From an uncultured Pseudomonadota bacterium (GTDB lineage Bacteria; Pseudomonadota; Alphaproteobacteria; Acetobacterales; Acetobacteraceae): a DNA stretch of 64,000 nucleotides. Under the pieces are notes generated by a model. It saw only the letters and a program-made list of their open reading frames with translations, had not been told where the DNA came from and did not search any database. The translations under genes and the position numbers were made by a program. The DNA lies in contig OY970182.1 in assembly GCA_963708095.1 (NCBI GenBank), positions 2,355,345 to 2,419,344 of the forward strand, read 5' to 3'. Shown here in pieces: positions 41,637-61,438 of the stretch (position 1 is the stretch's first letter; each line of letters begins with the position of its first letter).

Positions 41637-41683
41637 TTTTTTCCCCATCCTGGGGGCGGGTGGTGGCTGCAGAGGACACGAGG

Positions 41684-42645: not shown

Positions 42646-43157
42646 TGGTCAGTCTCACGACCGTGGAGCGGGTCCTCGTCCCGCGCAAAATCGCGGACGA
42701 TACGCAAGCCCATCTGCGCAACGTCGGCCGAAATGGCCTAGAGGGGATGGCACTTTGGGCCGGAGAGCTCGACGGAGCCGACTTCCTCGTTCGCGCCGCC
42801 GTGATCCCCCAGCAGCAGGGCCACCGCACCGAACATGGCATAGCCGTTTCCGTCCCCGGCTTCGAATTGCATCGGATCAACATGTGGCTGCACCGTAACC
42901 GGCTGCGACTCATCGCCCAGATACACAGCCATCCGACCGAGGCCTATCACAGCGACACAGATGACCGGTACGCTATCGTTACGGCGCTCGGCTCTTTGTC
43001 GCTGGTCGTGCCCGATTTCGCCGTGCGGCCGTTCGCCTTGAACGACTGCGCTGGCTACCGCCTGTCCACGCCGCCCTGGTGGCGGCTTTCCAGTAGGCCT
43101 CAATGGCGCGCCTTGCCGTTTGAGGAATTGACCCGAACCATTCAAGTCATGTCCTGA
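42642..43157 (+). CDS. JAB/MPN (JAMM) metallopeptidase
   Basis: ATGA overlap with the E2 stop. JAMM motif IHSHPTEAYHSDTD and upstream Glu in GLEGMALWAG. Confidence 0.9.
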   Translation: MMVSLTTVERVLVPRKIADDTQAHLRNVGRNGLEGMALWAGELDGADFLVRAAVIPQQQGHRTEHGIAVSVPGFELHRINMWLHRNRLRLIAQIHSHPTEAYHSDTDDRYAIVTALGSLSLVVPDFAVRPFALNDCAGYRLSTPPWWRLSSRPQWRALPFEELTRTIQVMS

Positions 43158-43160
43158 CCC

Positions 43161-45737: not shown

Positions 45738-46792
45738 GTGCCGGACCTGATCGTCATCGGCGCCGGCCTTTCCGGCTTGGCGCTGGCGCGGGCGGCGACC
45801 GGGCGCGGCGCCGAGGTGGTGGTGCTGGAAGCCCGCGCGCGCATCGGCGGCCGGGTGCTGAGCCATCGCACCGCGGCCGGCGCCTACGACCTCGGCCCTG
45901 CCTGGGTCTGGCCCGCCATGCAGCCGCGCATCGCCCGGGCCGTGCGGGCGGCGGGGCTGGCGCTCACCGAGCAGGCGGAGGCGGGCGGCTTCGTCTTTCA
46001 GGACCAGACGGGGCGCATACAGCGCCTGCCGCATGGGTTCGCGCAGGAGCCGCCGAGCATGCGCATCACGGGCGGCATCGCGGCGCTGGTGGAAGCTGTC
46101 GCCGCCGGCCTCGCCCCGGGGTGGTCCGGCTGGAACACGCGGTCCGGCGCATCGCGCTGACCGGAAGCGGCGTTGCCGTCACCGCCGAAAGCTCCTCCGG
46201 CCCCGTGATGCTGTATGCCGCGCGCGCCGCGCTCGCCCTGCCGCCGCGCCTGATCGCTGGGATCGAGATCCTGCCCGACCTGCCACCGTCCGTGCAGGCG
46301 GCGCTTGCTGCTGTGCCGGGCTGGATGGCGGGCCAGGCCAAGGTGCTGGCGCTCTACAACCGGCCGTTCTGGCGCGAGGCGGGCCTGTCGGGCAGCGCAT
46401 TCAGCCAGGCGGGACCGCTCGGGGAACTCCACGATGCGAGCCTCGCCGGCGCCGCCGAGGCTGCGTTGTTCGGCTTCTTCTCCTGGCCACCCGCCCTGCG
46501 CGCGGGGCGACGCACGGCCTTGCCGGAGCTGGTCGCCCGCCAACTCGGCATGCTGTTCGGCGCCGAGACCGCTCGGCCGCGCGAGGTGATCATCCAGGAC
46601 TGGGCAACCGAACCCTTCACCGCGACCGAAGCCGACCACGCCAACGGCAACGTGCATCCGGACTATCGCCCGATCGCCCTGCCGGCGCCGTGGGGCGAAC
46701 GGATTACCCTCGCCGGCGCCGAAATGGCCCCCGAATTCGGTGGCTATCTGGAGGGCGCGCTCGCCGCGGCCGAGGCCGCCACTATCGCGTGA
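45738..46792 (+). pseudogene. FAD-dependent amine oxidase with an apparent frameshift
   Basis: The GTG start gives DLIVIGAGLSGLALA (FAD GxGxxG). The frame ends at 46160, while the rest of the protein (VVRLEHAVRRIAL...YLEGALAAAEAA) continues in another frame from about 46117. The switch lies in CCCCGGGG (46114-46121). Confidence 0.65.
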
Positions 46793-46864
46793 TGTGCCGT
46801 CGGCCTCGAAGTCGGGGCAGGTGCTCACTGCGAACGGATCGACGTCACGGTGGATCGGCTGGGC

Positions 46865-47023
46865 GCGGCCCATCCATGGCTCGGGGCGGATGCGGCGTGC
46901 CCAGTCGGCGAAGCTCGGGATGAAGCCGAGATCCTCGCGGACATGCTGCTCGCCGATCAACCGCACCGGCAAAACGCACCCGGTCGAGATGGTGATGGTC
47001 GGCCCGAAGAATTGCTCCGCCAT
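46865..47023 (-). pseudogene. C-terminal fragment of a small DUF6915-like gene, split by a mobile element
   Basis: (M)AEQFFGPTITISTGCVLPVRLIGEQHVREDLGFIPSFADWARRIRPEPWMGR. There is no in-frame stop until 45998, so the 3' end is undefined. Confidence 0.6.
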
Positions 47024-47098
47024 TATATGGACAGACTCTGCCAGAGAGCGCTTTCGGCGTAGGCTCGACGACGAGTACGACTGGGCTGGAGGTCTGCC

Positions 47099-48241
47099 AT
47101 GTCGAACAATTCTATGAGCATTGATGCGCCTGCATTGGGTGGGTTCGACCCGGCTGCATCGCAGTTTTCTGTGTATCTCGATGCGTCGGGATGTTCGCCC
47201 AACACCGCGCGCGCATATGCTCAAGATCTTTCGCATCTTCGATCCTTTCTGGTTGAACAAGGTTTGGAATGGCCGAGCCTCACGCCCGCGCTTGCGGTCG
47301 ATCTGCTGCTTCACCTTCGGAGCAAGCGGAGCCATCGTCGCGGTGCTGCCCAGTATCCCTCGCTCGCGACAGTCAACGGCGAGCGGGGCGCACGTCTCAG
47401 CACCGCGACGATCAACCGGGTGTTGGCCGCCGTGTCATCATTCTACGAGTGGGGCAGGATCACCGAGCGGTTCGATGGCCCTAACCCGATCACCCGTGTT
47501 CACGATCGCGCCGCCGCTCGGGTCTCGGAACGTCATCGGCCGTTCCTGACCGGCGTTGTGCCACCGCGCCAGATACGCAGCCCGGTGCGGCTACGGCAGG
47601 TACATCGCGTGCCCCGCCCGATGTCGAATGAGGACATCGACGCGCTGATCGCGCAGCTCCGCTGCCGTCGCGATCTGGCGATAATTCGCCTGATGCTCGA
47701 CGGTGGTCTTCGTCCCGGCGAAGTGCTTGGCCTTCATCTGATCGATCTCGCCTACGGCAGACGGCGGGTGATGATCAGGGTCCGCTTCGATCATCCGCGC
47801 GGCGTGCGCAGCAAATCTAGAACCGAGCGCGTAGTCGATCTCCACGAGGCGGCGACACTGGAAGCTGTAAGCGCCTATGTGATGCGCGAGCGGCCGCAGG
47901 ATACCGATACTCCGCACCTCTTCCTCGTTGGCGGACGCGGCCCGCGCCGGCATGAGGCATTGTCCTATTCCGCGTTGGTCAGGCTGTTCGCGCGGGCCTG
48001 CACCCGCGCTGGCATTCGGACGCCGTGGATTACACCACACGCGCTGCGCCACACCCATGCGACCCGCATGTGGGAGGGCGGCATGCGCGAGCTGACGCTC
48101 CAGCGACGGCTTGGCCACGCCTCGCCCGAAGCGACCCGCGTCTACACACGCGTTTCGGACCCGATCGTCGTCGCTGAGTATCGACGCGCTCTCGGCCTCG
48201 GCGACGCGCCTGCAACCGAGCCGGGGACCACAGCGTCGTGA
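47099..48241 (+). CDS. Tyrosine recombinase (smaller subunit)
   Basis: 380 aa. HALRHTHATRMWEGGMRELTLQRRLGHASPEATRVYTR. Confidence 0.9.
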   Translation: MSNNSMSIDAPALGGFDPAASQFSVYLDASGCSPNTARAYAQDLSHLRSFLVEQGLEWPSLTPALAVDLLLHLRSKRSHRRGAAQYPSLATVNGERGARLSTATINRVLAAVSSFYEWGRITERFDGPNPITRVHDRAAARVSERHRPFLTGVVPPRQIRSPVRLRQVHRVPRPMSNEDIDALIAQLRCRRDLAIIRLMLDGGLRPGEVLGLHLIDLAYGRRRVMIRVRFDHPRGVRSKSRTERVVDLHEAATLEAVSAYVMRERPQDTDTPHLFLVGGRGPRRHEALSYSALVRLFARACTRAGIRTPWITPHALRHTHATRMWEGGMRELTLQRRLGHASPEATRVYTRVSDPIVVAEYRRALGLGDAPATEPGTTAS

Positions 48242-50283
48242 GAGCGGGCCCGGTCTCGGCCGCCGCAATGCAGGCGCGCGCAGTCGAGGAGCCGCGGAAC
48301 AATCGGAGCCGTCACTGCTCGGCGGACGAGTATGACGCGTTTCTCGCCGGTTGCGAGGTCGCCAAGCACTTCGTCCAGCAGCGCCGCAGTCATCGCAAGC
48401 TCTTCGTGCAAGCCTGGCCTGATCTCGAAGAGTGGCTTCACGCACCACTTGCCGATCGCATTGGCCGAATGGACGGGCAGACACGACGCACGCTCACCAA
48501 CCGGCCATCCTATTACGCGCGCGCCTATCTCTATTATCTGGCGCTCAACGGTCATCTGCGTCTCGACTATCCGTGGCTGCTCGCGATTGGCGACCTGTGT
48601 GTCCATGATGTCGCCTATCATATGCGCCTTGATCTGGGGGCGGATACGCTCGCGACCGAGGCCGCCGCGCTCGGCCTTCGCTGCGAGAACGCGAAGCTTG
48701 CGATGCGTTGGACGCTGGGCCGCATCGCCGTTCACGGCGGTCCACAATCGATCGACAGGCTCAATGACAACGACATCGACCAGATGCTCGTCGCGGTTCG
48801 CGAGTTCAGCAAGCGGCCAGATCTTGCCGCTTACTGGACGTCGGCCGAGCGTTATTGGCAGGTTTCCAAGAGCTGGATCACGAAGATCGGCCAGCTCAGG
48901 CTCGTGCTCTATCATCGCGGCCAGGTTCAGGAGGTACCGCGTAAGATAATGCCGTCGGCTGACCTGTGTGCGGGGCAACCGGCGATGGGCGTGCTGGTCG
49001 ATGCGTGGCTTGAACGTCGTGCGCCTGCCTTGCGACCAGCGACCACATATCATTATGCGCTGACGGCACGCCGGTTTCTCGGGCATCTCGCCGAGTCCCA
49101 TCCGCAGGTCCAGACCTTCGCCGACGTAAAGCACGATCACATTGTCAGCTGGATGGATGCGATGGCGACCGAGCTGTCGCCGACGACGGGACGGCCGCTC
49201 ACCGCACGGTCGCAGCGTGAGCGCGTCATTCGTCTGGCGCAGTTTTTCAAGGATGCTGAGGATTGGGCATGGCACAACGTGCCGAGATGGCCGCTGATCG
49301 CCAAGCGCGATCTACCGCGCGTCCCAGACCGCATACCACGTTACATTCCTCGTGCTGACCTCGAACGACTGATGGATGCTGTCAGGGCGCTGCCCGACCC
49401 GTTTCAGCGGGCTGCGATGATCGTCGCACGCTGGTCGGGCGCGCGGCGCAGCGAGGTGCGGCGTCTTACGACCGACTGCCTCAACAACTATTCCGATGGC
49501 ACGGCCCGACTGCGCATCCCGGTCGGCAAGACCGCACGCGAACGTATGATCCCACTCCATGACGAAGCGGCCGACGCTCTGCGCGCGGTGCTGGCAATCC
49601 GCGCGGAGGTCGCCGACCGGCGCTTGCCCGACGAGCGAACCGGCGATCTGGTCCGGTTCGTGTTCGTCTGGCGAGGCAAGCTTATGAGCGATCGGCATCT
49701 GTTCGGAACGCCGCTTAGGCGCGCATGCGAAGCAGCGAGTCTTGTCGACGCTGTCGGCAAACCGACGATCACCATGCATCGCTTTCGCCATACGCTCGGC
49801 ACCGAACTTGCCGAGCGCGGCGCGAAGCTGCACACGATCATGAGCATCCTCGGCCATGAGAGTCCACAGATGACGATGGTCTATGCGCGGATAAGCGATG
49901 CCGAGGTATTGCGCGACTATCGCTCGGTGCTCGAACCAGGCGCCGTGATCGCGGGTGCGGGAGCCGAGGCGATCCGCGCCGGCGCCCTCTGCGACAGTGC
50001 GATCGATTGGTTGCGCACCAACTTCCTGAAGACCGAGCTCGAGCTGGGGCATTGCCTGCGGCTGCCCTCGGAAGGGCCGTGCGAATGTGATCTCTATCTG
50101 AGTTGCTCGCGGTTCGTGACGACGCCAACTTATGCTCCGAGGCTGCGAGAGCGCCACCGGCTCGAACTGTCTCTTGCAGACGATGCCCGCGAGCGGTCCT
50201 GGCCGCGGGAGGTCGAGCGGCACTGCTCGGTCGCCCGCCGTATCGAGCAGTTGCTCACAGATCTTGGACAAGGAGTAGATTGA
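48238..50283 (+). CDS. Tyrosine recombinase (large subunit)
   Basis: 681 aa. GTG start in a GTGA overlap with the upstream stop. HRFRHTLGTELAERGAKLHTIMSILGHESPQMTMVYAR. Confidence 0.9.
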   Translation: MRAGPVSAAAMQARAVEEPRNNRSRHCSADEYDAFLAGCEVAKHFVQQRRSHRKLFVQAWPDLEEWLHAPLADRIGRMDGQTRRTLTNRPSYYARAYLYYLALNGHLRLDYPWLLAIGDLCVHDVAYHMRLDLGADTLATEAAALGLRCENAKLAMRWTLGRIAVHGGPQSIDRLNDNDIDQMLVAVREFSKRPDLAAYWTSAERYWQVSKSWITKIGQLRLVLYHRGQVQEVPRKIMPSADLCAGQPAMGVLVDAWLERRAPALRPATTYHYALTARRFLGHLAESHPQVQTFADVKHDHIVSWMDAMATELSPTTGRPLTARSQRERVIRLAQFFKDAEDWAWHNVPRWPLIAKRDLPRVPDRIPRYIPRADLERLMDAVRALPDPFQRAAMIVARWSGARRSEVRRLTTDCLNNYSDGTARLRIPVGKTARERMIPLHDEAADALRAVLAIRAEVADRRLPDERTGDLVRFVFVWRGKLMSDRHLFGTPLRRACEAASLVDAVGKPTITMHRFRHTLGTELAERGAKLHTIMSILGHESPQMTMVYARISDAEVLRDYRSVLEPGAVIAGAGAEAIRAGALCDSAIDWLRTNFLKTELELGHCLRLPSEGPCECDLYLSCSRFVTTPTYAPRLRERHRLELSLADDARERSWPREVERHCSVARRIEQLLTDLGQGVD

Positions 50284-50464
50284 GATGGCGACAGCGCGTG
50301 TGGCCCGGTGCTCGCCCCGGTGGGTCCACAGGCACCTCCCCGCCGCCCGCTCCGCTTGCGCGCTGATACGCGCTACGCGGACGGCGGGGCCCCTCCTATG
50401 GACTACCGGGACGACCACCTCCGTCAGTGCCAAGATCAGACCGCGCTTGCATGTCCACATAACC

Positions 50465-50625
50465 GCCATGAAGATACCTTCCGCATGATGCCGGAGTGCA
50501 CGATGTCGAAAATCCGAGGTCAACATCTTCGACTCGTCGAACCAGGCGTGGAGCGGCAGGTAATCATCCGCAGTTCCGCCCCAAAGGCGCGCCGAGGACA
50601 GGGCGTGATGATATGGATGTGCCAT
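50465..50625 (-). pseudogene. N-terminal fragment of the DUF6915-like gene
   Basis: MAHPYHHALSSARLWGGTADDYLPLHAWFDESKMLTSDFRHRALRHHAEGIFMA, then element sequence. Confidence 0.65.
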
Positions 50626-50636
50626 CGTCGCCTCCA

Positions 50637-51101
50637 TCAGAATTCGTGTTCGGAGTAGGAGGTCGTCATCACGCGCTCGTTGTATTCCAAACGGATGGTG
50701 CGCTCGCCGACGTCGAAGGTGAATTCGCCATAGGCGCCGTCTTCGTTCTCCCAGCCGTCATGCGCCTCTTCGAGGAAGTCGTAGGCCAGCTTCTCGATGG
50801 CGTCGCGCGCCGACATGGTCTCGGTCTGCACGCCACTTCCGTCCCAGAGCGGGGTGCGGATCTCGATGGTGCCGTCGGGCAATGCGGCGGCGGTTTCGTC
50901 TGGGTTCGTCGCGTCGATGCTCTCGATCTGTCCGGAATCACCGGCGCCGTCGAAGTGAACGGTGATATGCTGGATGCCAGCCGCCTGAAGCACTGCGAAT
51001 AGCGCGGCCTTGTTGAGCGGTGTCACCTCGCGGGCCAGATGGGCGCGCAGCCGGGCCTGGGCCTCGTACGGCGCGAAGGCATCGTTCGGGTTGTCGATCA
51101 T
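50637..51101 (-). CDS. Conserved ICE-associated protein (DUF6878-like)
   Basis: MIDNPNDAFAPYEAQARLRAHL...VHFDGAGDSGQIESI...GWENEDGAYGEFTFDV. Confidence 0.55.
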   Translation of the reverse strand: MIDNPNDAFAPYEAQARLRAHLAREVTPLNKAALFAVLQAAGIQHITVHFDGAGDSGQIESIDATNPDETAAALPDGTIEIRTPLWDGSGVQTETMSARDAIEKLAYDFLEEAHDGWENEDGAYGEFTFDVGERTIRLEYNERVMTTSYSEHEF

Positions 51102-51170: not shown

Positions 51171-53291
51171 TCACTCAGCGGCGATGGCCTGCGGCACGGC
51201 GGGATCTTCGGCGTCGATCAGGAACGCCGGCAGTGCGGTGATCGCGTCGGCGTCACCGCCGGCCGCCTCCTCGGCTTCATCGTCACTGGCGGCGAGAGGG
51301 ACGGCCGCAGCCTCAGGCAACCCGGGCGTGCGGAGCGGCTCCGGCAGCCAGCCGGTGCCGGCGAGCAGCCGTTCGGCCTCCTGCGCCATCTCCGGCTTCT
51401 TCAGGTGGTCGATCAACTGCGCGGCGTGCTCGCTCTTTGCCTCGCGCACCGCCTCCAGGATGCGGGCCTTCGGCACCCGGCCGAGATAGGTCTCGACGGT
51501 TGGCACCCAGCCGGCCGCCGCCATGTCGAGACCGACCGCCTGCGCCAGTCGATCGGCGTGGGCCAGCGCGCCCGGACGACGGTTCCAGGGTTCGTGCAGC
51601 GCGTTGATCGTCAGTGCGGCGCAATGCGCAAACAGCGCCGCGCGCGTGTCGGTGTCGAACCCGACGAGCGCATCCCAGAGTTCTCTGGACGTCGCGGGCA
51701 ACTGCTTCACCCACGCCTCGTGCCGCACGTCGATGGCCTGGGCGGACGCGGTGTCGTTCAGTCCCGGAGCCTGGGTCCCGAACCCGGCGCTCTTGGCCTC
51801 GATCTCCAGGCACGTGTCGGCGGCGGAGCGATAGAACAGGCGGAGGCAAAACGCGTGGAGCACGGCCAGCAACGCCGTGTCGCAGTCGTTCCCCAAGGCT
51901 TCCCGCAACGCGAGCGTCCGGTGTGCGGTGAGTTCCGTCATCAGCCGCTCGGGCAGCGGCTTCAGCCCCTCGTCCTCCTCGGGCACCTCGGCGGACGGAT
52001 CCGCGGCCGTGATGGTCGTGGTCGAGCGTGCCTGCGGCAGCGACAGATCGCGATCGGTATCGGGCATCGTGCTGGCCGGCTCCGCGGCCTGATCGGGATC
52101 GTCGGGCGCAGCGACCGGCGGCTCGTCCTCGGGCCGCACGTAGCCGCGCTCGATGCGCAGCGCGCCGTCCCGGTCGATACTGACGAACGCACCGGCGCGC
52201 ACGATGTCGTCGCGATCGAACTTCGGCGGACGGTTCTGGAATGCCCCAATCGCCGTCTCGATCTCGACCAGCCGTGCCTCGACCGCGTCCGGCAGTTCGT
52301 CGGTCTCGCCATACTGCTCCTCCAGCGCGTCGTATTCGGCCTTCAGCGCCTCGAACTCCGTCTGCTCTGCTTCGATGAGGGGATTGGTGGTGGGCAGCGG
52401 ACGCAGTCCGTGCCGGTGGCCGTAGGGGAAGTCCGGCGCGGCCTCGACCCATTTCCAGCCCTCGGCGCGGATGGCGTCGGCCTCCCGCGCCAGGCGCTCG
52501 GCCACCAGCCGGTCGAGCAATGCCGGATCCTGCAACCAGCCGCCCTCGTCCTCCTGGAACAGGTCGCGCATCACGATGCCGCCTAAGGCTTCGTACGCCT
52601 CGATGCCGACGAAGCAGGCGCGCCGGTCGCTTGCGCGTACCGCGCCCTCGGTCAGCATGCGGCGGATGATGTGTGGCTCCTTGTTCCAGCCACGCTGGAT
52701 CGTCGCCCACACCTGCTCCTGCCGCGCGTGATCGTCGCTGACGCAGAACGCCATCAGCTGATCGAGCGTCATCGCCCCCTCGGCATAGGCGTCGAGCAGC
52801 GCCTGGTTGGCGGCGGCGAGCTTGAGCCGCTGGCGCACCACCGCGGCGGTGACACCGAACGCCGCGGCGATCTCCTCCTCGCCCTGGCCCTTCGTGCGCA
52901 GCGCCTGGAAGGCGCGGAACTGATCGAGCGGATGCAGCGCCTCGCGGTCGGTGTTCTCGGCGAGGCTGTCCTCCTCGGCGAGGCCCTCGGTCTTGACGAT
53001 GCAGGGGATGGGCGCGGTCTTGGCCAGGCGCTTCTGCCGGACCAGCAGTTCCAGCGCCCGGAAGCGCCGTCCGCCGGCGGGCACCTCGAACATGCCGGTC
53101 TCATTGCCCTCGGCGTCCAGCACCGGGCGCACGCTCAGGCTTTGCAGCAGGGAACGCCGGGCGATGCTCTCGGCCAGCGCCTCGATCGAGACGCCGGCCT
53201 TCACGCGCCGGACATTGGCCTGGCTGAGGACGAGCTTGTTGAACGGGATGTCCCGGGACGGGTTCAGGACGATCTTTTGGGTCGCAGCCAT
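51171..53291 (-). CDS. ParB/Srx-domain protein (large ICE ParB-like)
   Basis: 706 aa. The N-terminus LVLSQANVRRVKAGVSIEALAESIARRSLLQSLSVRP...EVPAGGRRFRAL is a ParB N-domain with the GGRR box. Confidence 0.85.
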   Translation of the reverse strand: MAATQKIVLNPSRDIPFNKLVLSQANVRRVKAGVSIEALAESIARRSLLQSLSVRPVLDAEGNETGMFEVPAGGRRFRALELLVRQKRLAKTAPIPCIVKTEGLAEEDSLAENTDREALHPLDQFRAFQALRTKGQGEEEIAAAFGVTAAVVRQRLKLAAANQALLDAYAEGAMTLDQLMAFCVSDDHARQEQVWATIQRGWNKEPHIIRRMLTEGAVRASDRRACFVGIEAYEALGGIVMRDLFQEDEGGWLQDPALLDRLVAERLAREADAIRAEGWKWVEAAPDFPYGHRHGLRPLPTTNPLIEAEQTEFEALKAEYDALEEQYGETDELPDAVEARLVEIETAIGAFQNRPPKFDRDDIVRAGAFVSIDRDGALRIERGYVRPEDEPPVAAPDDPDQAAEPASTMPDTDRDLSLPQARSTTTITAADPSAEVPEEDEGLKPLPERLMTELTAHRTLALREALGNDCDTALLAVLHAFCLRLFYRSAADTCLEIEAKSAGFGTQAPGLNDTASAQAIDVRHEAWVKQLPATSRELWDALVGFDTDTRAALFAHCAALTINALHEPWNRRPGALAHADRLAQAVGLDMAAAGWVPTVETYLGRVPKARILEAVREAKSEHAAQLIDHLKKPEMAQEAERLLAGTGWLPEPLRTPGLPEAAAVPLAASDDEAEEAAGGDADAITALPAFLIDAEDPAVPQAIAAE

Positions 53292-53295
53292 CGGT

Positions 53296-53350
53296 GATCT
53301 CCGCGACGGGCCGGCCGGGAGCCGCTCTCCCAGCCCCTCGACCCGTCACG
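53296..53350 (-). promoter_or_regulatory. Class-A structured leader, copy 1 (before the parB-like gene)
   Basis: In gene sense: CGUGACGG...GGCUGGGAG-AGCGG-CUCCCGGCC...CCGUCGCGGAGA, then 4 nt and the AUG. Confidence 0.5.
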
Positions 53351-53392
53351 AAAATCCCCTCCGCCCTCTAACTCCCGGCGGCGATGCGAGCC

Positions 53393-53788
53393 TCACGCGC
53401 CGGGGTCATCCGCCGCTGGTTCCGGCAGGTTGACCACGTCGGCGCCGGCGGCGCGGTAGGCCGCCGCGACCGCCACCAGGGGCGCGTAGCTGAACGGGCC
53501 ATGCGGCGGCGGGTCAGGCGGCGCGCCGACGGCGACCATCGGCCCGCGAATGACGAGCCGCGCCACGGCATCGAAGGCGACGCCACGGCTGTCGATCACC
53601 GGCAGGCCCGCTTCGATGCAGGCCGCCTTGATCGGCTCGGAGTCGTATCCCAGGAGCCGGCATCCATCCCCATACCAGAGGATGAAGCCGCCCCGGCCGA
53701 TCGAGAGATGGCCACCCTCGGTCGCCAGGGCTTCCGCGATCAGGTCGGAATGGTGGGAGTGGAGGTCGGCGTTTTCGGTCGCGTTCAT
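53393..53788 (-). CDS. Conserved hypothetical protein between ardC and the parB-like gene
   Basis: 131-aa ORF preceded by a class-A leader with a Shine-Dalgarno sequence. Family not recognised. Confidence 0.55.
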   Translation of the reverse strand: MNATENADLHSHHSDLIAEALATEGGHLSIGRGGFILWYGDGCRLLGYDSEPIKAACIEAGLPVIDSRGVAFDAVARLVIRGPMVAVGAPPDPPPHGPFSYAPLVAVAAAYRAAGADVVNLPEPAADDPGA

Positions 53789-53792
53789 GGCA

Positions 53793-53848
53793 GATCTCCG
53801 CGACGGACCGGCCGGAAGCCTCTCTCCCGACCCTTCGACCCGTCACGG
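53793..53848 (-). promoter_or_regulatory. Class-A structured leader, copy 2
   Basis: CCGUGACGG...GGUCGGGAG-AGAGG-CUUCCGGCC...CCGUCGCGGAGA. The ardC stop codon (53843-53845) is the UGA inside the outer stem. Confidence 0.5.
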
Positions 53849-54832
53849 AATGTCGGCGGCCCTCTGGCTCTCGGGCGCCGAGGCCGGCATCGCGAGACCC
53901 GCTGGAGCTTCCGGCTCACTTTCATCAACCTGGAACGCCAGCAGATAGTCGGCGGCTTTCGAGGCCGCGCTGGCGGCGCGGATGATCGCGCGATCATCGT
54001 CGCGCAGCACCTCGAGCCACGAGCCGACGTAGTCGGCGTGCCGCACAGTCGGCACGATGCCGAGGCTGGCGCAGAGGAACGCCGCCGTCATCTCGGCGAC
54101 CAGTTCTTCCTTCGCGTAGCTGGCGGAGCCGAAGCCGCCGGACATGTCGCGGGCCAGCCGATGGGCCGCGCCGGACCAGTGGCCGAGCTCGTGGAGAGCC
54201 GTGCGATGCCAGTTCACCGGCTCGAAGTATGCTTGCGGCGGTGGCACCTGGATGAAGTCGCCCATGACCGAATAGAACGCGCGGTCGCCGTCGATCCTGA
54301 TGTCGGCGCCACTGGCCCGGATCAGCGCCTCGGCCTGGGGCAGGATCAGGCCCTCGGGAACCGGTGGTGCCACGGATGCGACCGCGTCGGGCAGTCCGTC
54401 GCACTGATCGGTGTTGAACACGGTGAAGCGCTTGAGGAACGGGATGGCGCTCGGCTCGTCGCCGTCGCGGTCGGCGCGCTTACGCTCGGCCTCCGGCACG
54501 AAGCGATCGGCGTAGACCACCGTGGTGCCCCGTTCGCCTTTGCGGACATTGCCCCCGAGCCCGAGCGCCTGGCGGAAGGTGAGCCAGGCCTGGCCGGAAT
54601 AGCCGCGCTCGATCACCGCGCCCCAGAGGATCAGCACGTTGATCCCCGAATAGCGCCGGCCGGTCGCCGCGTTCCTCGGCAGGCCGACGGCCGCCCCGGT
54701 GCCCGAGGCGCCCCAGGGCTGGATCCAGGGCAGGCGTCCGGCCTCCAGCTCGGCGATGATCTTGTCGGTGATTTCGGCATAGAGGCTCGCCCGGTCCTGG
54801 CCGGCACGAGGGCGAGCGGATGAACGTGACAT
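53843..54832 (-). CDS. ardC: ArdC-type antirestriction protein (ssDNA-binding N-domain plus zincin peptidase)
   Basis: YAEITDKIIAELEAGRLPWIQPWG and HELGHWSGA (HExxH). Start set at 54832 by alignment of the conserved leader (the track start is 54859). Confidence 0.9.
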   Translation of the reverse strand: MSRSSARPRAGQDRASLYAEITDKIIAELEAGRLPWIQPWGASGTGAAVGLPRNAATGRRYSGINVLILWGAVIERGYSGQAWLTFRQALGLGGNVRKGERGTTVVYADRFVPEAERKRADRDGDEPSAIPFLKRFTVFNTDQCDGLPDAVASVAPPVPEGLILPQAEALIRASGADIRIDGDRAFYSVMGDFIQVPPPQAYFEPVNWHRTALHELGHWSGAAHRLARDMSGGFGSASYAKEELVAEMTAAFLCASLGIVPTVRHADYVGSWLEVLRDDDRAIIRAASAASKAADYLLAFQVDESEPEAPAGLAMPASAPESQRAADIP

Positions 54833-54836
54833 CGCG

Positions 54837-54889
54837 GGTCTCCGCGACGGGCGCCGCAAGCCTCTCTCGCGGCCATAAACCCGTCACGG
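54837..54889 (-). promoter_or_regulatory. Class-A structured leader, copy 3 (before ardC)
   Basis: CCGUGACGG...GCCGCGAG-AGAGG-CUUGCGGC...CCGUCGCGGAGA. Confidence 0.5.
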
Positions 54890-55011
54890 CCAACCCGGCC
54901 GAACTCCCACTCTGGAACTTTGCCCTGCCTCAGCCGCAGGTCGCCCACAAACCCGACCACGGAGGCGACGAGCCGGTTCAGCGACGCTCTCGTCACGACC
55001 CTTCGTGGGGG

Positions 55012-56205
55012 CTATGCCTTGAAGCTGCCCAGATTCTCCCACACGACGTCGTCTGCAATCTGATTGACCAGGAAATCCGCCCATGCCTGCGAGTAGGTGT
55101 AGGATTTGAAGGGCGGGTGATAGATGCAGAATTTCTTGTCGGTTGTGGCGGGATCGCCTGCGCCGGTCTTGGGGCGGGCCTTGAACATCTTCCACGCACG
55201 CTGATGCCTGTCGCTCGTGAAGTTCCGTCCGCTTTTGTCAGCCACCAGATTCACGACGTCGCCTGGCTTTAAGGGATAGAGGTCATCGAGTGGCTTATAT
55301 TTGAGCAGTACATTCTGGATCTCCTTACCCTCGGCGGAATCGGGTTGGACAAACTGGAAGTGCGCCTTCGCCTTTGATGCGTTAGTGAGCGTATAGACGA
55401 CCTTGAATTGATACTCGAGATTGTCGGCGTCGCCTTCGTCGAGCCTTGCAGCCAAGTTGGCGTCGAGGGCCGCAATGTGCTCAGGCAACTCGAAGCCTTC
55501 CAACGCGGCGATCTCCTCCGTGGTCATCTTGGCGAACTGGAGGGAGAAGCCCAGTTCGCGGCCCAGTGTGAGCCGCGGGCCGAACAACTCGGTCAGGGCT
55601 CTCTCAAAGTTTAGACAGGTAGACTGGAACAGGGGTAGCCACTTACGGTCAAAAGACCCGATCGTGCGGTGCTCGACGACGTCCCGGATGTCCTTGAGCG
55701 CCGCCAGGTTTTGCTTGCACGCTTTGGAGAGTGGGCAATCGTCGCGTGCAATCATCTGGGAGAGGAGCAGGCTGAATCCATCCTTGTTGATGATCGCAAC
55801 ACCCTTGGACTCATAGAATTCGTGTAGCAGGTAGGTCCAAGCGACATTCGTCAGCATCGAGAAGACCCCAGCCTTGAAGGCGATCCGAGGGGTATTAAAC
55901 AGTTCGACCGCAAGGATCATTGCCTCACGGGCGCGGACAAGGCGCTCATTGTCGATCGGGCAGAGGCCCGTGACGTGATCGAAAAGCAGCTTCTTCTGCC
56001 GAAAAGCATCTACCTGCTGCTTCGTGGCAGGCACGACCATGCCGTCGGCCTTTATCCCTGCGATGCGCCCGAAATTGATGGAAGCGGACCTGCCCGTGTT
56101 GATTAGCGCCTGGATATCTTGGTTCCGCCAGCCCTCGTCGAGCAGCGCTTTGATCACCGACCTCTCGATCGGCGTCAGCATCGATTTGGACGGCTTCTTG
56201 ACCAT
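55012..56205 (-). CDS. DUF3644-like protein
   Basis: 397 aa, visibly lower GC with A/T-ending codons. The core REAMILAVELFNTPRIAFKAGVFSMLTNVAWTYLLHEFY resembles DUF3644. Confidence 0.6.
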   Translation of the reverse strand: MVKKPSKSMLTPIERSVIKALLDEGWRNQDIQALINTGRSASINFGRIAGIKADGMVVPATKQQVDAFRQKKLLFDHVTGLCPIDNERLVRAREAMILAVELFNTPRIAFKAGVFSMLTNVAWTYLLHEFYESKGVAIINKDGFSLLLSQMIARDDCPLSKACKQNLAALKDIRDVVEHRTIGSFDRKWLPLFQSTCLNFERALTELFGPRLTLGRELGFSLQFAKMTTEEIAALEGFELPEHIAALDANLAARLDEGDADNLEYQFKVVYTLTNASKAKAHFQFVQPDSAEGKEIQNVLLKYKPLDDLYPLKPGDVVNLVADKSGRNFTSDRHQRAWKMFKARPKTGAGDPATTDKKFCIYHPPFKSYTYSQAWADFLVNQIADDVVWENLGSFKA

Positions 56206-56282
56206 TACATCACGCTATCATGAAGAGGCATCACTCTCTAGTGGGACGCGAGGTCGGTGGGCGCGGCGAGAGGAGCTTGCGC

Positions 56283-57527
56283 TCATGCTCCTGTTTGGGG
56301 CGCCTTGTCCACAGGGCCGAGCAAGAAGCGTGGCTTCGGATATTCGCCTTTCTGGAGCGCGACTTCGAAGAGCTGAAGCAGGCCGTTCATTAGCCGCGTA
56401 GGCGACGGCAGTTTCAGCGCCATCACGTGGAGCGCGGCATATTCGAGGAGGACGGCCGGCGCCCCGCACGCCTGGGCGGCAGCAAGCACCGGTATGCTGC
56501 ATGCACGATAATCGTCGTCGAACATTTCGCGCACGACGACGAGACCGCAGATCAAGCGGTCGCCGACCACGAGGGTTTGCGGATCATCGTCGTCGCGGAT
56601 CACGATGGCCTCGCGCCCGAGGATATAGGTCATGGCCCCGCGCAGCTGCGCAGCTCCCTTTTCGATATGCGCCCGAATGGTCGCGCGTTTGCGTTCAATC
56701 GAGCGGCGCAGCGCCCGTTCGGTGTTGGGGCTATCCTTGGCTTGGACCACGAGAATGATGTCGTCAGTGATGCACATGACGTCAGCGAGTTCCTTGCCGG
56801 TGTCATCGCGAATGGGATTAAGGAAGACGCAGTCAGCAGCAAAGGCCCGGCGAAGCAGACGCGCGATGTCCCGCTCTTGATAAGCGCCGGGCTCCTCGCG
56901 TTCGAGGCTGTTAACCGCAGCATCGGCGCCCGCGCCTCGGTAATCGGTGGCCTCCAGCCGGGCATCGATGAACACGAAGTCAGAAGGGTATAGTTCGCTC
57001 TCGAGATGGATAGTAAAGGCCGCAGCATCGTCCGATGCGGTGCGATAGGCAAACCAGTCGTGCATCGCGCTTAACATGTCGGGCACCCTGTCGAGGTCCA
57101 ACATGCTCAGCTTGCTCCCGTTCCAGGTCGCGCCAAGCCGGTCCGCCTCGCCAAGCCTCGCGCTCACCCCTAACAGCTCGCGATCATGCTCGTCGAAAAA
57201 ATAGAGATTGAAGACACCTTGCCCGAGAAGGAGGCCGAGATCCGTTGCGAGCGCATCCTCGGCAAAGAGTGGGGTATAGATGACCAACGGCTCGTCGTGA
57301 TCGTCGAAGAAGGCGGTGATACAGCCGTGCGCTCGGCCCGGACTATGCACGTCTGGAATCAGATAGATCTTAATCTGCCGATTAAGGCGGGTGGTGAGGA
57401 TGGCCTCTTTGTTGATTTTGATGATCAGGCACAAGCGTCCGTCGGGCGGAACTCGCACTGGCTGCAGCCCATAGGCCAGATCGCCCAGATGGGCGAGGAT
57501 CTGCGGAAACTCAACGGAGAACAACAT
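56283..57527 (-). CDS. Hypothetical protein with a possible PD-(D/E)xK (Mrr-like QxK) nuclease core
   Basis: 414 aa from MLFSVEFPQ (GGAG 7 nt upstream). The segment GAYQERDIARLL...ELADVMCITDDIILVVQAKDS fits the E...D...QxK pattern. Family not recognised. Confidence 0.5.
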   Translation of the reverse strand: MLFSVEFPQILAHLGDLAYGLQPVRVPPDGRLCLIIKINKEAILTTRLNRQIKIYLIPDVHSPGRAHGCITAFFDDHDEPLVIYTPLFAEDALATDLGLLLGQGVFNLYFFDEHDRELLGVSARLGEADRLGATWNGSKLSMLDLDRVPDMLSAMHDWFAYRTASDDAAAFTIHLESELYPSDFVFIDARLEATDYRGAGADAAVNSLEREEPGAYQERDIARLLRRAFAADCVFLNPIRDDTGKELADVMCITDDIILVVQAKDSPNTERALRRSIERKRATIRAHIEKGAAQLRGAMTYILGREAIVIRDDDDPQTLVVGDRLICGLVVVREMFDDDYRACSIPVLAAAQACGAPAVLLEYAALHVMALKLPSPTRLMNGLLQLFEVALQKGEYPKPRFLLGPVDKAPQTGA

Positions 57528-57762: not shown

Positions 57763-59988
57763 CTATTGAGCACGGGTGTCGGTTCCAGCGGCCGCAGCTG
57801 GCACCCGCATCGCGGCCAACCATTCCCGCAGCTTCGACCAGCGCCGCCGTCCCGTCACGTTCCGTACCGCGATTGCCACCGCCTTCCGGCTGCCGACCAG
57901 CACAACCAGCCGCTTGCCGCGGGTGATGCCGGTATAGAGCAGGTTCCGTTGCAGCATGGCGTAGTGCTGCGTCAGCACCGGGATCACCACGGCGGGATAT
58001 TCCGATCCCTGCGCTTTGTGGATCGTCGCCGCATAGGCCGGTACCAGCGCATCAAGATCGCCAAGGCCATAGGTCACGTCACGCCCGTCGAACCGCACGG
58101 TGATCTCGGCCTCCTCGGTATCGATTGCTGCGATGAAGCCGATATCGCCGTTATTGACCTCGCGATCGTAGTCGTTCTCGATCTGCATGACCTTGTCGCC
58201 GGGCGCAAAGGTCCAGCCGAATTTCTCGACCTTCGGCGTCGCCTCGCCATTCAGCGCGGCCTGCAAGTCGATGTTCAGCGACCGCGCGCCGACGCCGCCG
58301 CGCGCCATCGGGCACAGCACCTGGATGTCGCGCACCGGATCGAGCTCGAACCGGCGGGGAATGCGGATCTTCACCAGATCGATGATGCGCGCGACGGCCG
58401 TCTCCGGGTCGTCGGCCTGGACGAAGTGGAAATCGCTCCCTGCCTCGGCGCGGGTCAGGTCCGGCATCTCGCCGCGATTGATCCGGTGCGCGCTGGTGAT
58501 GATCCGGCTGGAGGCCGCCTGGCGGAAGATCTCGGTCAGCCGCACCACCGGCACCGCGCCGGAGCCGATCAGGTCCGCCAGCACCTGGCCAGGCCCGACC
58601 GAGGGCAGCTGATCCACGTCGCCCACCACCAGCAGGGCGGCCGCTGTGGGGATCGCCCGGGTCAGCGCGTGCATCAGCGGCACGTCGACCATGGAGGCCT
58701 CGTCGATGACCAGCAGGTCGCACTCCAGGAGGTGATCCGGTCCGCGCCGGAACCCGCCGGTGCGCGGATCGACCTCCAGCAGGCGATGGATCGTCCGAGC
58801 CTCGAATCCGGTCGCCTCGCTCATCCGCTTCGCCGCCCGCCCGGTGGGAGCCGCGAGCAGGATGCGCACCGCCTTGGCGGCGAGGATGGCGAGGATCGCC
58901 CGCATGATCGTCGTCTTACCGACGCCGGGGCCGCCGGTGATCACCAGCAGCTTCGCGGCAAGGGCAAGGCCGACCGCCTGGCGCTGGCTCTCGGCGAGCG
59001 TCATGCCGATCCGCCGCTCGACCCAGGGGATGGCCCTTTCCGCGTCGATCGCCGGCCAGGGCAGCGCGCCGGAGGCGACCGCCCGCAGCCGTTCGGCGAT
59101 GCCACGCTCCGCGTGGTAGAGGCCGGCGAGGAAGACGCAGTCCGCCTCGTCGACGCGGTCGGCGATCACCGCGCCGTCGGCCAGTTCGAGATCGAGCGCG
59201 GTGCGGATCAGCGCCTCCGGCACCTCCAGCAGGCGTTCCGCGAGCGGGATCAGTTCCGCGACGGGCAGCCCGCAATGGCCCTCGTCCATCGCCTCGGAGA
59301 GGGCATAGCCGATGCCGGCGCGGACGCGGATCATCGCCGTCTTCTCGATGCCGAGCCGGGCGGCGATGGCATCCGCCGTCTTGAAGCCGATGCCTCTTAT
59401 GTCGCGCGCGAGCCGGTACGGGTTCTCGCTCATCACCTGGATGGCGTCGGCCCCGTAGGTCTTGAAGATACGCACGGCGCGCGCCGTGCCGACGCCGTGG
59501 CTGTGCAGAAACACCATGATCTCGCGGATCACCTTCTGCTCGGCCCAGGCATCGACGATACGCTTCGCCCGGACCTCGCCGATCCCGCCCACCTCACGCA
59601 GGCGCTGTGGCGCACCCTCGATGATGTCGAACACCGCCTCGCCGAAGCCGCGGACCAGCTTCTTCGCGTAGACCGGCCCGATGCCGCGGATCATGCCGGA
59701 GGCGAGGTAGCGCTCGATTCCCTCGGCGGTGGTGGGTGCTGAGGTCTTCAGGAACCGCGCCTTGAACTGCTGGCCGTGGGTGCGGTCGTTCACCCACTCC
59801 CCGGTGGCGGTGATCCACTCGCCGGCGGCGATGGCAGCGGCGTGGCCGACGATGGTGACGAGGTCGCGGTGCCCGCGCGCCTTCACCCGCAGCACGGCGA
59901 AGCCGCTCTCGGCATTGTGGAACGTCACCCGCTCGACGATGCCGGCGAGCACTTCGCCATCGGGCCACGGGGCTTGGTGCTCGGTCAT
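57763..59988 (-). CDS. RecD2/TraA-like SF1B helicase
   Basis: 741 aa. N-terminal OB/HhH region, Walker A LVITGGPGVGKTT, Walker B LLVIDEASMVD, and a C-terminal SH3-like region. Confidence 0.9.
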   Translation of the reverse strand: MTEHQAPWPDGEVLAGIVERVTFHNAESGFAVLRVKARGHRDLVTIVGHAAAIAAGEWITATGEWVNDRTHGQQFKARFLKTSAPTTAEGIERYLASGMIRGIGPVYAKKLVRGFGEAVFDIIEGAPQRLREVGGIGEVRAKRIVDAWAEQKVIREIMVFLHSHGVGTARAVRIFKTYGADAIQVMSENPYRLARDIRGIGFKTADAIAARLGIEKTAMIRVRAGIGYALSEAMDEGHCGLPVAELIPLAERLLEVPEALIRTALDLELADGAVIADRVDEADCVFLAGLYHAERGIAERLRAVASGALPWPAIDAERAIPWVERRIGMTLAESQRQAVGLALAAKLLVITGGPGVGKTTIMRAILAILAAKAVRILLAAPTGRAAKRMSEATGFEARTIHRLLEVDPRTGGFRRGPDHLLECDLLVIDEASMVDVPLMHALTRAIPTAAALLVVGDVDQLPSVGPGQVLADLIGSGAVPVVRLTEIFRQAASSRIITSAHRINRGEMPDLTRAEAGSDFHFVQADDPETAVARIIDLVKIRIPRRFELDPVRDIQVLCPMARGGVGARSLNIDLQAALNGEATPKVEKFGWTFAPGDKVMQIENDYDREVNNGDIGFIAAIDTEEAEITVRFDGRDVTYGLGDLDALVPAYAATIHKAQGSEYPAVVIPVLTQHYAMLQRNLLYTGITRGKRLVVLVGSRKAVAIAVRNVTGRRRWSKLREWLAAMRVPAAAAGTDTRAQ

Positions 59989-60000
59989 CGCCTGGTTCCG

Positions 60001-60183
60001 TCAGGCGGGCGGAAGCGGGGCGAGCAGGTCGGCGTCGTTGTTGGCTGGCCGGTTGACCAGTGTACTCACCGGCCAAACCCGCAACGTGTCCTTGGCCGCC
60101 GGGTGCAGCAGCGATCCGGCGTCGCCCTCGATCTCGCCGAGCCATAGCGGCCAGTCGGGCGGTTCGACAATCACGGGCATGCG
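60001..60183 (-). pseudogene. C-terminal fragment of an SOS-response-associated peptidase (SRAP/YedK) gene
   Basis: RMPVIVEPPDWPLWLGE...LRVWPVSTLVNRPANNDADLLAP. Confidence 0.75.
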
Positions 60184-60247
60184 GCAGGTTATCCGCACCA
60201 AGGCCAGCCATGCCACAATGGCAGGGTCCCCTTCGGCGGAGGCCGCC

Positions 60248-61438
60248 ATGTCCGTGCCCGCGAAAGGCTTCGCCGTCAGAGAGGACCGTGTCGGCAGCCC
60301 CTCACACGAGGTCACGGGCACCGCCGGCAGCGTCGAGCCGGCGGTACACGCGTTTCTGCTCGACCTTTTCGTCGCTGATTGCAGCCCGGCCACAGTCAAG
60401 TCCTATGCCTTCGCCCTCTGCTCCTGGCTGAACTTCCTCGCCGCGAACGCTACCGCTTGGCAGAACGCCCGGCCGGAGCATCTGCGCGATTATGTCCTTC
60501 ACCTGCGCACCGCCGACAATCCCCATCGCGCGCGGCATCGAAAGGATGGCCCCGCGCCCGGTAGCGCCAATACCCGTACTGGCAAGCCTTACCTCGCGGC
60601 CGGGTACCAACCGGCGACCATCAATCACCGGCTGAGCGTCATTCAGGGCTTCTATGCTTTCCAGCAGCATGCAACCGGATGCGCCGCCTTTGAGCGCTTA
60701 TTCGTTTTCGGGCGCCGCCGTGCTCACCACAGCCCACTCGACCCCTGGCCGCTGCGCCGGCGAACTGGGTATCGGCAGCGGCAACCGAAGCGCATCCCGC
60801 GCGCCTTGACCGACGATCTCTGGAAGGATGTGTTCGCCAGCCTTGCCTTCGACAGGGACCGGGCGATTTTGTGCCTGCTCGTCTCTTCCGGTAGCCGTGC
60901 GCAGGAACTGCTCGACATGCGCGCCGCCGACGTCGATTGGGGCGGCCAGCGGGTTTGCCTCACCTGCAAGGGCACGCGGGACCGGACGTGGGTGGCGGCC
61001 TCGCCCGAATTCTTCAGGTGGCTGGCCGCCTACCTGACCCAGCGCAGTCATGCCCCGCCGGAAGCGCCACTTTGGGTCACCCTGCGCCGACCGGTGCGTC
61101 CACTTCGCTATCCGGCGCTGCGTGCCATCTTCACGCGCGTCAATGCACGGCTCGGCACCAACATCATGGCGCATGACCTACGCCACACCTGTGCGCTCCG
61201 CCTTGCAGCGGACCCGGCGGTACCCCTCGTGCACGTGCAGGCTCACATGCGACACCGACACATTGCCACAACCGAGCACTACCTGATCGCGCGGCCGGAT
61301 GATGTCGTGGCGCAGCTCCGCGCTCACCTTTCCCGCAAACCGTCTGCCGGCGGGAGTGCCGCGGCGGGCGCCGACGCCTGGAATTACGAGCCGAGCGATC
61401 TGGCCGTGCTGCTTGGCGGCAACGGGAGCAGGCGATGA
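60248..61438 (+). CDS. Tyrosine recombinase (smaller subunit)
   Basis: GGAGG lies 5 nt before the ATG at 60248 (alternative start 60218). HDLRHTCALRLAAD...MRHRHIATTEHYLI. Confidence 0.85.
   Translation: MSVPAKGFAVREDRVGSPSHEVTGTAGSVEPAVHAFLLDLFVADCSPATVKSYAFALCSWLNFLAANATAWQNARPEHLRDYVLHLRTADNPHRARHRKDGPAPGSANTRTGKPYLAAGYQPATINHRLSVIQGFYAFQQHATGCAAFERLFVFGRRRAHHSPLDPWPLRRRTGYRQRQPKRIPRALTDDLWKDVFASLAFDRDRAILCLLVSSGSRAQELLDMRAADVDWGGQRVCLTCKGTRDRTWVAASPEFFRWLAAYLTQRSHAPPEAPLWVTLRRPVRPLRYPALRAIFTRVNARLGTNIMAHDLRHTCALRLAADPAVPLVHVQAHMRHRHIATTEHYLIARPDDVVAQLRAHLSRKPSAGGSAAAGADAWNYEPSDLAVLLGGNGSRR

Follow-up and report, generated by a model that had tools for sequence, protein, structure and literature searches.

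Results

Genes and leader copies at the locus

The DNA analysed here is a stretch of 64 kb from contig OY970182.1 of an uncultured Acetobacteraceae bacterium (the whole stretch is called the window throughout), and its host region is the backbone of an integrated conjugative element (ICE) with every backbone gene on the minus strand. Between 55.0 and 51.2 kb three genes follow one another on this strand, namely ardC, orf131 and a parB-like gene, and each is preceded by its own copy of a leader of about 95 nt, which is the subject of this work. The first of them, ardC (53843–54832), encodes a protein of 329 aa with an ArdC N-terminal domain (PF08401, E 3e-43) and a zincin-like metallopeptidase domain (PF18818, E 5e-51). 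It is followed by orf131 (53393–53788, 131 aa), for which profile searches against Pfam and NCBIfam returned no family match, and by the parB-like gene (51171–53291), whose 706-aa product consists of a ParB N-terminal domain and about 600 aa without assignment; its match to PF02195 (E 1e-4) stays under the Pfam cutoff and its matches to TIGR03734 and TIGR00180 stay under the NCBIfam cutoffs.

Read from 5′ to 3′ the leader is composed of a purine block, a G/U-rich flank of about 13 nt, an outward helix extension (P0), the outer helix P1, a 5′ bulge, the inner helix P2 and a pentaloop, and the start codon lies 5–10 nt past the Shine-Dalgarno (SD) motif GGAG. Copy 3, ahead of ardC, extends over 54830–54923 (minus strand) and was recognised from its sequence, its fold and its scores with models R1 (81.5 bits) and R2 (89.8 bits, E 1e-21). 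Its purine block AGAGUGGGAGU is located at 54913–54903, the 5′ and 3′ arms of P1 at 54889–54879 and 54852–54842, the 5′ bulge at 54878–54874 and the two strands of P2 at 54873–54866 and 54860–54853, which enclose the loop AGAGG (54865–54861); GGAG occupies 54843–54840 and the ATG 54832–54830. Copy 2, ahead of orf131 (53786–53881, minus strand; model R2 77 bits, E 3e-18), has its purine block GAGAGCCAGAGGG at 53872–53860 within the 3′ end of the ardC coding sequence, the 5′ arm of P1 from 53848 onwards, GGAG at 53799–53796 and the ATG at 53788–53786. Copy 1, ahead of the parB-like gene (53289–53385, minus strand; model R2 81.4 bits, E 2e-19), carries the purine block GGGAGUUAGAGGG at 53376–53364, the P1 core from 53350 onwards, the loop AGCGG, GGAG at 53302–53299 and the ATG at 53291–53289.

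An earlier note on this DNA had described three copies of a two-tier hairpin in front of these genes, and the copies were found where it had placed them: the exact pattern CGTGACG-N30-60-CGTCGC matches the 64 kb only at 53303–53350, 53800–53847 and 54844–54888. Its account of the loop, of the inner-helix sequences and of the spacing to the ATG likewise agrees with the sequence, as does its remark that the ardC stop codon (TGA, 53845–53843) lies inside the P1 5′ arm of copy 2; the conserved unit, however, is longer than the coordinates given there. A covariance model built from the three copies returned them with E-values of 1e-19 to 1e-22, the next match being the reverse strand of copy 1 (E 0.009).

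On the sense strand the minimum-free-energy fold of each copy is the two-tier hairpin, with −54.2, −37.5 and −49.6 kcal/mol for copies 1 to 3 in 81-nt windows. The antisense strands fold with −30.1, −23.3 and −34.0 kcal/mol, so that the sense strand is better by about 15–24 kcal/mol. Compared with shuffled sequences, copy 1 (z −6.4) and copy 3 (z −5.5) are clearly more stable, whereas copy 2 (z −1.2) is no better than its shuffles.

As a separate observation, a mini-hairpin CGTGACGagagCGTCGC (CGTGACG-AGAG-CGTCGC) is present at 54981–54997 on the minus strand, 15 nt past the stop of the DUF3644 gene. Its arms have the sequence of P1, its loop is AGAG, and an inner helix is lacking; it is conserved in none of the other loci fetched and may be a relic or a product of chance.

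Distribution and downstream genes

With ArdC as bait 80 loci were fetched, one genome per species, at 65–95% identity and from five or more alphaproteobacterial orders. A covariance model identified 174 leader instances in these ArdC-anchored loci, and in every case (174/174 in the ardC-oriented loci) the strand is that of the gene. Scanning metagenome contigs with a specific DNA pattern provided 120 additional loci, and a search with a sequence profile built from a 75-sequence MAFFT alignment yielded 350 leader instances in all, distributed over about 200 alphaproteobacterial loci. The leader-bearing orders are Rhodospirillales, Rhizobiales, Rhodobacterales, Sphingomonadales and Caulobacterales.

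Nearly every instance finishes at a start codon, the few exceptions being cuts at contig ends or disrupted genes. The gene behind the leader is most commonly ParB-like (140 instances), followed closely by ArdC (137), and then by a 397-aa family with a weak DUF932 match (23), a 182-aa family for which Pfam and NCBIfam gave no significant family (22), orf131 (4) and RadC (2). Together with its own leader copy, orf131 occurs only in a few relatives (loci L001, L002 and L161) and, more divergent, in L015 and L038.

A comparison of the ardC–leader segment with PLSDB gave matches to 101 plasmid records, and in about 39 of these the match covers 80% of the query or more; other ardC plasmids match the coding part only. 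K. vulgare pYP1 carries, in this order, ardC – DUF2958 – parB – ... – strawberry notch – toprim, and its ardC leader comes after a divergently transcribed gene. A pattern scan of viral contigs gave 95 matches, and the model confirmed true instances in only 4 of the 80 loci searched. Since these four look like ICE fragments, they provide no evidence for use of the leader by phages.

Structure and conservation of the leader

The purine block, (A/G)GAGNGAGAG(K)G, precedes P1 by 12–14 nt in each copy, whatever the class of the gene, with a modal distance of 27 nt between the block and the UGA in P1, and upstream of the block the similarity between distant loci stops abruptly. P1 comprises 10–11 bp and P2 8–9 bp, which stack to 19–20 bp and are separated by a bulge of 5–6 nt on the 5′ side and 0–3 nt on the 3′ side. 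Standard pairs make up 94.8% of the cells on the model-fitted alignment (129 distinct sequences) and 97.2% on the MAFFT-only alignment (75 sequences). For comparison, slid partners were paired in 36–49%, and none of 500 shuffles reached the observed covariation score. Compensatory changes were detected at 7 of 8 pairs of P2 on the model-fitted alignment and at 6 of 7 on the MAFFT-only alignment, as exemplified by one pair that is realised as AU (44), GC (38) and CG (28), and RNAalifold returned the same fold on an independent alignment. The earlier note had staked its proposal on covariation in a larger alignment, and covariation was found on two.

P1 is mostly fixed in sequence (GACGGG/CCCGUC). 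The outer helix had been called invariant, which is correct for the three copies of the window; across homologues, by contrast, two of its pairs vary yet stay paired (GC 82, GU 33 and AU 7 at one of them; UG 76, CG 28 and UA 22 at the other), and one metagenomic copy even replaces an A-U by a G-C within the core. The bulge, which reads UUGRRG, is also nearly fixed, as are the loop, which reads AGAGG or AGAGU, and the two pairs that close P2. The P1 core, bulge, loop and purine block remain near-invariant across orders, while ArdC goes down to 65–70% identity and P2 drifts.

Among the paired positions G.U or U.G occupies 507 cells and A.C or C.A only 17 (30:1). As selection on the opposite strand would give the reverse pattern, we conclude that the fold is selected on the gene-sense strand. 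The leader consequently unites compensatory pairs, location on the transcribed strand and a fixed position relative to the gene, as is generally expected of a structured cis-regulatory RNA. Towards the outside the helix can be continued by P0, in which the AGA of GGAGA and the spacer are potential partners of the G/U-rich 5′ flank (about −10 kcal/mol); this pairing beats that of shuffled flanks (p 1e-10).

Pairing of the Shine-Dalgarno motif

The two G's that open GGAG form the last pairs of P1 (CG 89 and UG 31 at one position; CG in 121 of 129 at the other), and its A and final G pair with U's of the flank in about 55–73% of the sequences, as part of a weaker extension. In partition-function folds from −80 to +20 the probability that GGAG is unpaired has a mean of 0.18 and a median of 0.13 in the leaders and amounts to 0.33 in 268 control long open reading frames (ORFs) with GGAG from the same loci (p 4e-13 for the difference). 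The hairpin had been described as occluding the SD; this can be upheld for the two G's within the strong helix, while the AG is held only by the weaker extension and occlusion is therefore partial. As in translational operators the SD lies within a conserved helix, with the restriction that its sequestration is incomplete. An RNA thermometer of the ROSE or fourU type was considered as well and rejected, as the hairpin, with −37 to −54 kcal/mol per 81-nt window and GC-rich helices of 10 bp and 8–9 bp, is not marginally stable.

Recombination between leader copies

The close relative L003 lacks orf131 and one leader copy. Comparison of its positions 6960–7050 with 53289–53881 of the window revealed that the single leader of L003 is a hybrid, the 5′ part of which corresponds to copy 2 up to the purine block and the rest to copy 1. 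Furthermore, copies 1 and 2 share a segment of 88 nt with 80% identity (53266–53353 and 53763–53850), including the first approximately 25 nt of the coding sequences of the parB-like gene and orf131 (ATG..GCGACC..AAA), which suggests that orf131 obtained its leader and first codons by duplication from parB. From the hybrid leader and the likeness of copies 1 and 2 we conclude that the leader copies are recombination substrates by which genes are added or removed. Recombination between leaders may also be how unrelated genes came to share the leader.

Related leaders and other features of the window

Upstream of ardC the ICE carries a RecD2-like helicase gene, a 496-aa ORF and the DUF3644 gene. 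Downstream of the parB-like gene follow DUF6878 and DUF6915 genes, the gene of a strawberry-notch-like helicase (35945–40318) and a DUF7146-Toprim gene, and farther along the ICE an RPA replication initiator, a DUF3363 relaxase (14779–16992), TraG and a trb type IV secretion operon are encoded.

Model R2 picked up a weak relative of the leader (E 0.16) at 40316–40417 on the minus strand, just upstream of the strawberry-notch-like gene (ATG 40318–40316), and at 18640–18730 of locus L081. It contains the purine block AAAGCGAGAGG, an GGUCGAGAGAGCGC segment and CUCUCC ahead of the ATG, and its helices are different. The leader of the strawberry-notch gene of K. vulgare pYP1, which begins 13 nt past an intrinsic terminator, has the block GAGAGUGAGAGG and shares GGUCGAGAGAGCGC and CUCUCC with this weak relative. 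The strawberry-notch leaders may represent a second, related leader class.

Several insertions and rearrangements were observed in addition. Directly downstream of the Toprim gene three neighbouring tyrosine-recombinase genes (337, 435 and 450 aa) are located at 31348–34635 on the minus strand, and two further ones (569 and 751 aa) at 59729–63690 on the opposite strand near the window end; both clusters look like multi-recombinase insertions within or beside the ICE backbone. The region 40661–44777, between the strawberry-notch gene and the DUF6915 genes, encodes a WYL-domain protein (434 aa, minus strand) as well as a prokaryotic E2 plus ThiF/E1-like protein (538 aa, plus strand), and this insertion is a defence-type cargo island within the establishment cluster. 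The ORFs at 49312–50637 and 45998–47335 (both minus strand) each cover half of DUF6915 (profile positions 1–54 and 50–102), i.e. the domain is divided between two paralogous or rearranged genes. Finally, a 198-nt direct repeat with 79% identity (35427–35624 and 35732–35929, 305 nt apart), which covers the 5′ end of the DUF7146-Toprim gene and the gap ahead of the strawberry-notch gene end, looks like a partial duplication.

Discussion

The earlier note had proposed that the hairpin is a cis-regulatory RNA with a role in translational control, processing or coupling. This proposal gained support from the covariation of P2 on both alignments, the 30:1 excess of G.U, the location of all 174 instances on the same strand and the end of the leader at the start codon with GGAG inside a helix. 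The leader is furthermore independent of its upstream context, as indicated by the abrupt end of conservation at the purine block, by the divergent neighbour in pYP1 and by the region 53200–56400 of the window, in which no sigma-70-like promoter and no intrinsic terminator were detected. The junction with the start codon, the SD within a helix, the selection of the sense strand and this independence taken together suggest that the leader most likely acts on the mRNA at translation initiation. On the strength of these comparative data we assign a probability of about 0.58 to the reading that the leader is a cis-regulatory mRNA element which partly sequesters the SD and coordinates the translation of an establishment regulon, probably via a sequence-specific factor.

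According to this model the folded leader would represent the off state and keep the translation initiation of each cistron low, and one common factor would recognise the conserved P1 sequence, the bulge, the loop and the purine block and thereby set the level of expression. That something reads the sequence is suggested by the near-invariance of P1, bulge, loop and block as opposed to the drift of P2 and the divergence of ArdC. The factor could be encoded by the element itself, or it could be a conserved host protein or RNase. As an outcome ArdC, the ParB-like and DUF932-like proteins, RadC, orf131 and the 182-aa family would be co-regulated as one post-transcriptional regulon, whatever promoter or upstream gene supplies the transcript.

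Several observations weigh against this interpretation. The sequestration of the SD is partial, and control genes in these GC-rich genomes often have paired SDs too. The pairing of P0 displays no co-evolution when cognate and non-cognate flanks are compared (p 0.15), and the search for an RNA partner complementary to the purine block or loop revealed none beyond chance in the window and none in the ±6-kb flanks of 81 loci. No candidate RNA-binding protein was identified. Moreover, with −37 to −54 kcal/mol the hairpin would have to be opened actively, and the sequence invariance of P1 could reflect a role at the DNA level or in processing.

The alternatives are considered in the order of decreasing probability. 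The first of them is a processing or stability signal, in which RNase III or another double-strand RNase would cut the hairpin, split the polycistronic transcript, leave a protective 3′ hairpin on the upstream part and free the downstream SD. The 19–20 bp of P1 and P2 together with the 5–6-nt bulge fit the T7-type geometry of about two turns with an asymmetric internal loop, the copies are situated between co-oriented cistrons in a region of the window where terminators and promoters were not detected, and if the 3′ strand were cut, CCCGUCGCGGAGA...AUG would become free as a short leader devoid of structure. The ardC copy, however, often opens its transcription unit, the gene upstream being divergent or unrelated, and hence is not always intercistronic. 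In addition RNase III needs little sequence specificity, so that the invariant loop, bulge and purine block would be left unexplained. We consider this processing role unlikely; it is compatible with the regulon proposed above, in which the RNase would be the trans-acting factor.

A structure in the transferred single-stranded DNA is very unlikely in our view, be it a T-strand hairpin serving as single-strand promoter of the Frpo type or a primase or single-strand-initiation site. The genes concerned are typical of establishment and anti-defence functions, the element encodes a Toprim-domain protein, and the sense strand also folds as DNA (−23, −15 and −25 kcal/mol). A single-strand promoter, though, must sit on the template strand, where the G.U pairs turn into C.A mismatches and the fold stays at the shuffle level for copies 1 and 2, and the predominance of G.U over A.C (507 to 17) points to selection on the sense strand. 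A stem of at most 22 bp is also too short to accommodate −35/−10 boxes, none of which were detected. For these reasons, namely poor folding of the template strand, insufficient stem length and the lack of visible promoter boxes, the single-strand promoter that the earlier note had offered as an alternative is disfavoured. A priming site, for its part, gives no reason why about 350 leaders should end at a start codon with GGAG. In RP4 the T-strand is the template of the relaxase operon; by analogy the T-strand of the ICE would be the plus strand and not the folding one.

Apart from this, the RP4-type nick consensus YATCCTGY matched the window 14 times as compared to 6.5 expected, and 12 of the 14 matches are on the coding strand. 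Two CATCCTG(C/T) motifs (18283–18290 and 18310–18317, minus strand), 27 nt apart, were noticed in the intergenic gap 18213–18339 upstream of the relaxase region. They lie on the strand not expected from the RP4 analogy and may be due to chance, as the motif is over-represented on the coding strand generally.

A double-stranded DNA operator has a similarly low probability. In this case the arms CCGTGACGGG and CCCGTCGCGG would be half-sites of a transcriptional regulator, for example the ParB/KorB-like protein encoded downstream, and the leader would define a regulon in the style of the CUP elements to which ArdK binds on IncN plasmids or of the KorB operators of IncP plasmids. The arms are indeed conserved in sequence beyond what pairing demands, the element is repeated ahead of several establishment genes including one of the parB family, and CUP elements show that a leading region can contain such upstream repeats (PMC6289460). 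Left unexplained are the covariation and G.U tolerance of P2, the conserved loop, the one-sided bulge and the strand asymmetry; furthermore, the half-sites would be about 36 bp apart, and the site overlaps the SD instead of a recognisable promoter. The leader may nevertheless have a dual role in DNA and RNA.

Little probability also remains for translational coupling, in which a ribosome would open the hairpin on reaching the UGA of the P1 5′ arm, where it terminates after translation of the upstream gene or of a short ORF that begins with a GUG of the purine block, and initiation downstream would thereby be permitted. In copy 2 exactly this UGA ends ardC, and 70% of the UGA-carrying ardC-type leaders contain an in-frame GUG, UUG or AUG as compared to 13% in the +1 control frame. 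Coupling via this UGA, as suggested previously, applies to the ardC–orf131 junction and fails as a general mechanism: about 15–20% of the leaders lack the UGA and carry CGCGACGG, and the end of the upstream gene is usually separated from the hairpin by 40 to more than 100 nt. The short ORF exists in only 37% of the parB-type leaders and is absent from copy 1; as a general mechanism it was consequently rejected. Its frame bias can be attributed to the conserved block-to-UGA spacing of 27 nt, and since conservation ends at the block the putative ORF has no SD ahead of it. In copy 3 the GUG of the block opens the frame GUG GGA GUU CGG CCG GGU UGG CCG UGA (54884–54913, minus strand), and frames of 6 or 8 codons are found in about 70% of the ardC-type leaders; the short GUG frame is probably a by-product of the fixed 27-nt spacing.

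Least probable of all is a recombination or cassette boundary resembling attC, or a selfish dispersed palindrome of the REP/BIME type, without any role in expression: the layout of conserved outer arms, variable inner stem and one-sided bulge is attC-like, orf131 is present or absent between leader copies, and copies 1 and 2 remain alike for about 25 nt of coding sequence, but the leader belongs to neither class, as the L003 junction lies in the purine block outside the conserved arms, as expected of ordinary homologous recombination between direct repeats, no integron-type integrase adjoins (the tyrosine recombinases of the window are at least 20 kb off or on the other strand), and only three copies occur in 64 kb, the leader being confined to about six families of downstream genes, with uniform orientation and constant spacing to the ATG.

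Beyond the coordination of translation, a more specific function is possible but doubtful. The leader might be the RNA operator of a dedicated regulator and confer a translational "zygotic induction" on the anti-defence and establishment regulon of alphaproteobacterial ICEs and plasmids, i.e. a burst of expression on entry followed by a promoter-independent, post-transcriptional shut-off. At the same time the leader, being self-contained within about 95 nt, might serve as a portable expression adaptor, with genes gained or dropped by recombination between its copies; such recruitment and loss are pointed to by the leader and first approximately 8 codons of orf131, which resemble those of parB, and by the deletion across two leaders in L003.

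The timing with which conjugative elements express their anti-restriction and establishment genes is under active study. The answers so far come mainly from enterobacterial plasmids, where single-strand promoters, ArdK/CUP and KorA/KorB are employed. The leader would represent a post-transcriptional solution in a very large group of alphaproteobacterial ICEs and plasmids (rhizobia, Paracoccus, Bradyrhizobium, sphingomonads). Being compact and testable, it allows clear predictions for mutants; it is also a candidate for inclusion in Rfam as a new family and a marker by which establishment genes of unknown function, such as orf131 and the 182-aa family, can be found.

Comparison with known systems

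The earlier note had not recognised the leader as a named motif, and Rfam 15 indeed contains no match to the leaders even at E ≤ 10: at gathering thresholds no family, the radC, STAXI and alphaproteobacterial sRNA families included, was found in the whole window, and scans at E ≤ 10, among them a lax one of 1.7 kb only, gave unrelated weak matches, none of them on the leaders. Among candidates dismissed, the radC RNA motif (RF01754) matched with E 1.8 and 6.1 inside the ardC coding sequence on both strands, which is attributed to chance. Full-text literature searches found no description of the leader.

The radC motif occurs in the 5′ untranslated regions of DNA-related genes of mobile elements (radC, integrases, methyltransferases, anti-restriction genes). 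Both this motif and STAXI are candidate structured RNAs from comparative genomics with unknown function (Weinberg et al. 2010, PMC2864571); STAXI adjoins ssb, topoisomerase, anti-restriction and integrase genes, and the question of RNA versus single-stranded DNA was raised there (PMC2864571). They resemble the leader as candidate RNAs beside DNA-related mobile-element genes, and RadC is also among the genes behind the leader. There is, however, no homology in sequence or structure. The leader forms one three-tier hairpin, is accompanied by a linear purine block and ends at the start codon, whereas STAXI is made up of tandem pseudoknots.

The repeats known as CUP (conserved upstream) elements can serve as recombination points for the gain or loss of genes. 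In the IncN plasmid pKM101 they are double-stranded DNA operators bound by ArdK, according to the passage in PMC6289460 that cites Delver and Belogurov (1997). Like the leader they are conserved elements repeated before several leading-region or establishment genes, which they unite into a regulon, and possible points of recombination; unlike them, the leader exhibits RNA-type covariation, G.U tolerance, strand asymmetry and overlap with the ribosome-binding site, and no promoter is recognisable.

With regard to RNA operators, the coat-protein operator of MS2/R17 and the leaders of ribosomal-protein genes occur in one copy each, are autogenous and have known binding proteins. In analogy to the leader, a hairpin in operators of the MS2/R17 type holds part of the ribosome-binding site and the bulge and loop are conserved, so as to offer a protein sequence-specific contacts, with the stem free to covary; the leader differs from them in being common to about six unrelated genes and in being much larger and more stable.

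In phage T7 RNase III sites are located between the cistrons of the early transcript, which includes an anti-restriction gene, and processing can expose a ribosome-binding site. These sites share with the leader the two-tier hairpin of about 20 bp, the asymmetric internal loop and the intercistronic location. Their loop sequence is not conserved and they are not fixed at start codons, and the ardC copy of the leader is often not intercistronic.

Single-strand promoters of the Frpo type, known from the leading regions of enterobacterial plasmids, fold on the transferred template strand and rebuild −35/−10 boxes in a long stem. They have in common with the leader a hairpin-forming sequence upstream of the anti-defence and establishment genes of a conjugative element, whereas the leader folds on the sense strand, with at most 22 bp and without promoter boxes. 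Since the leader is homologous to none of the known elements compared here and no description of it was found in the literature searched, we regard it, on the basis of sequence comparison, as a new putative family of structured cis-regulatory leaders with good comparative support.

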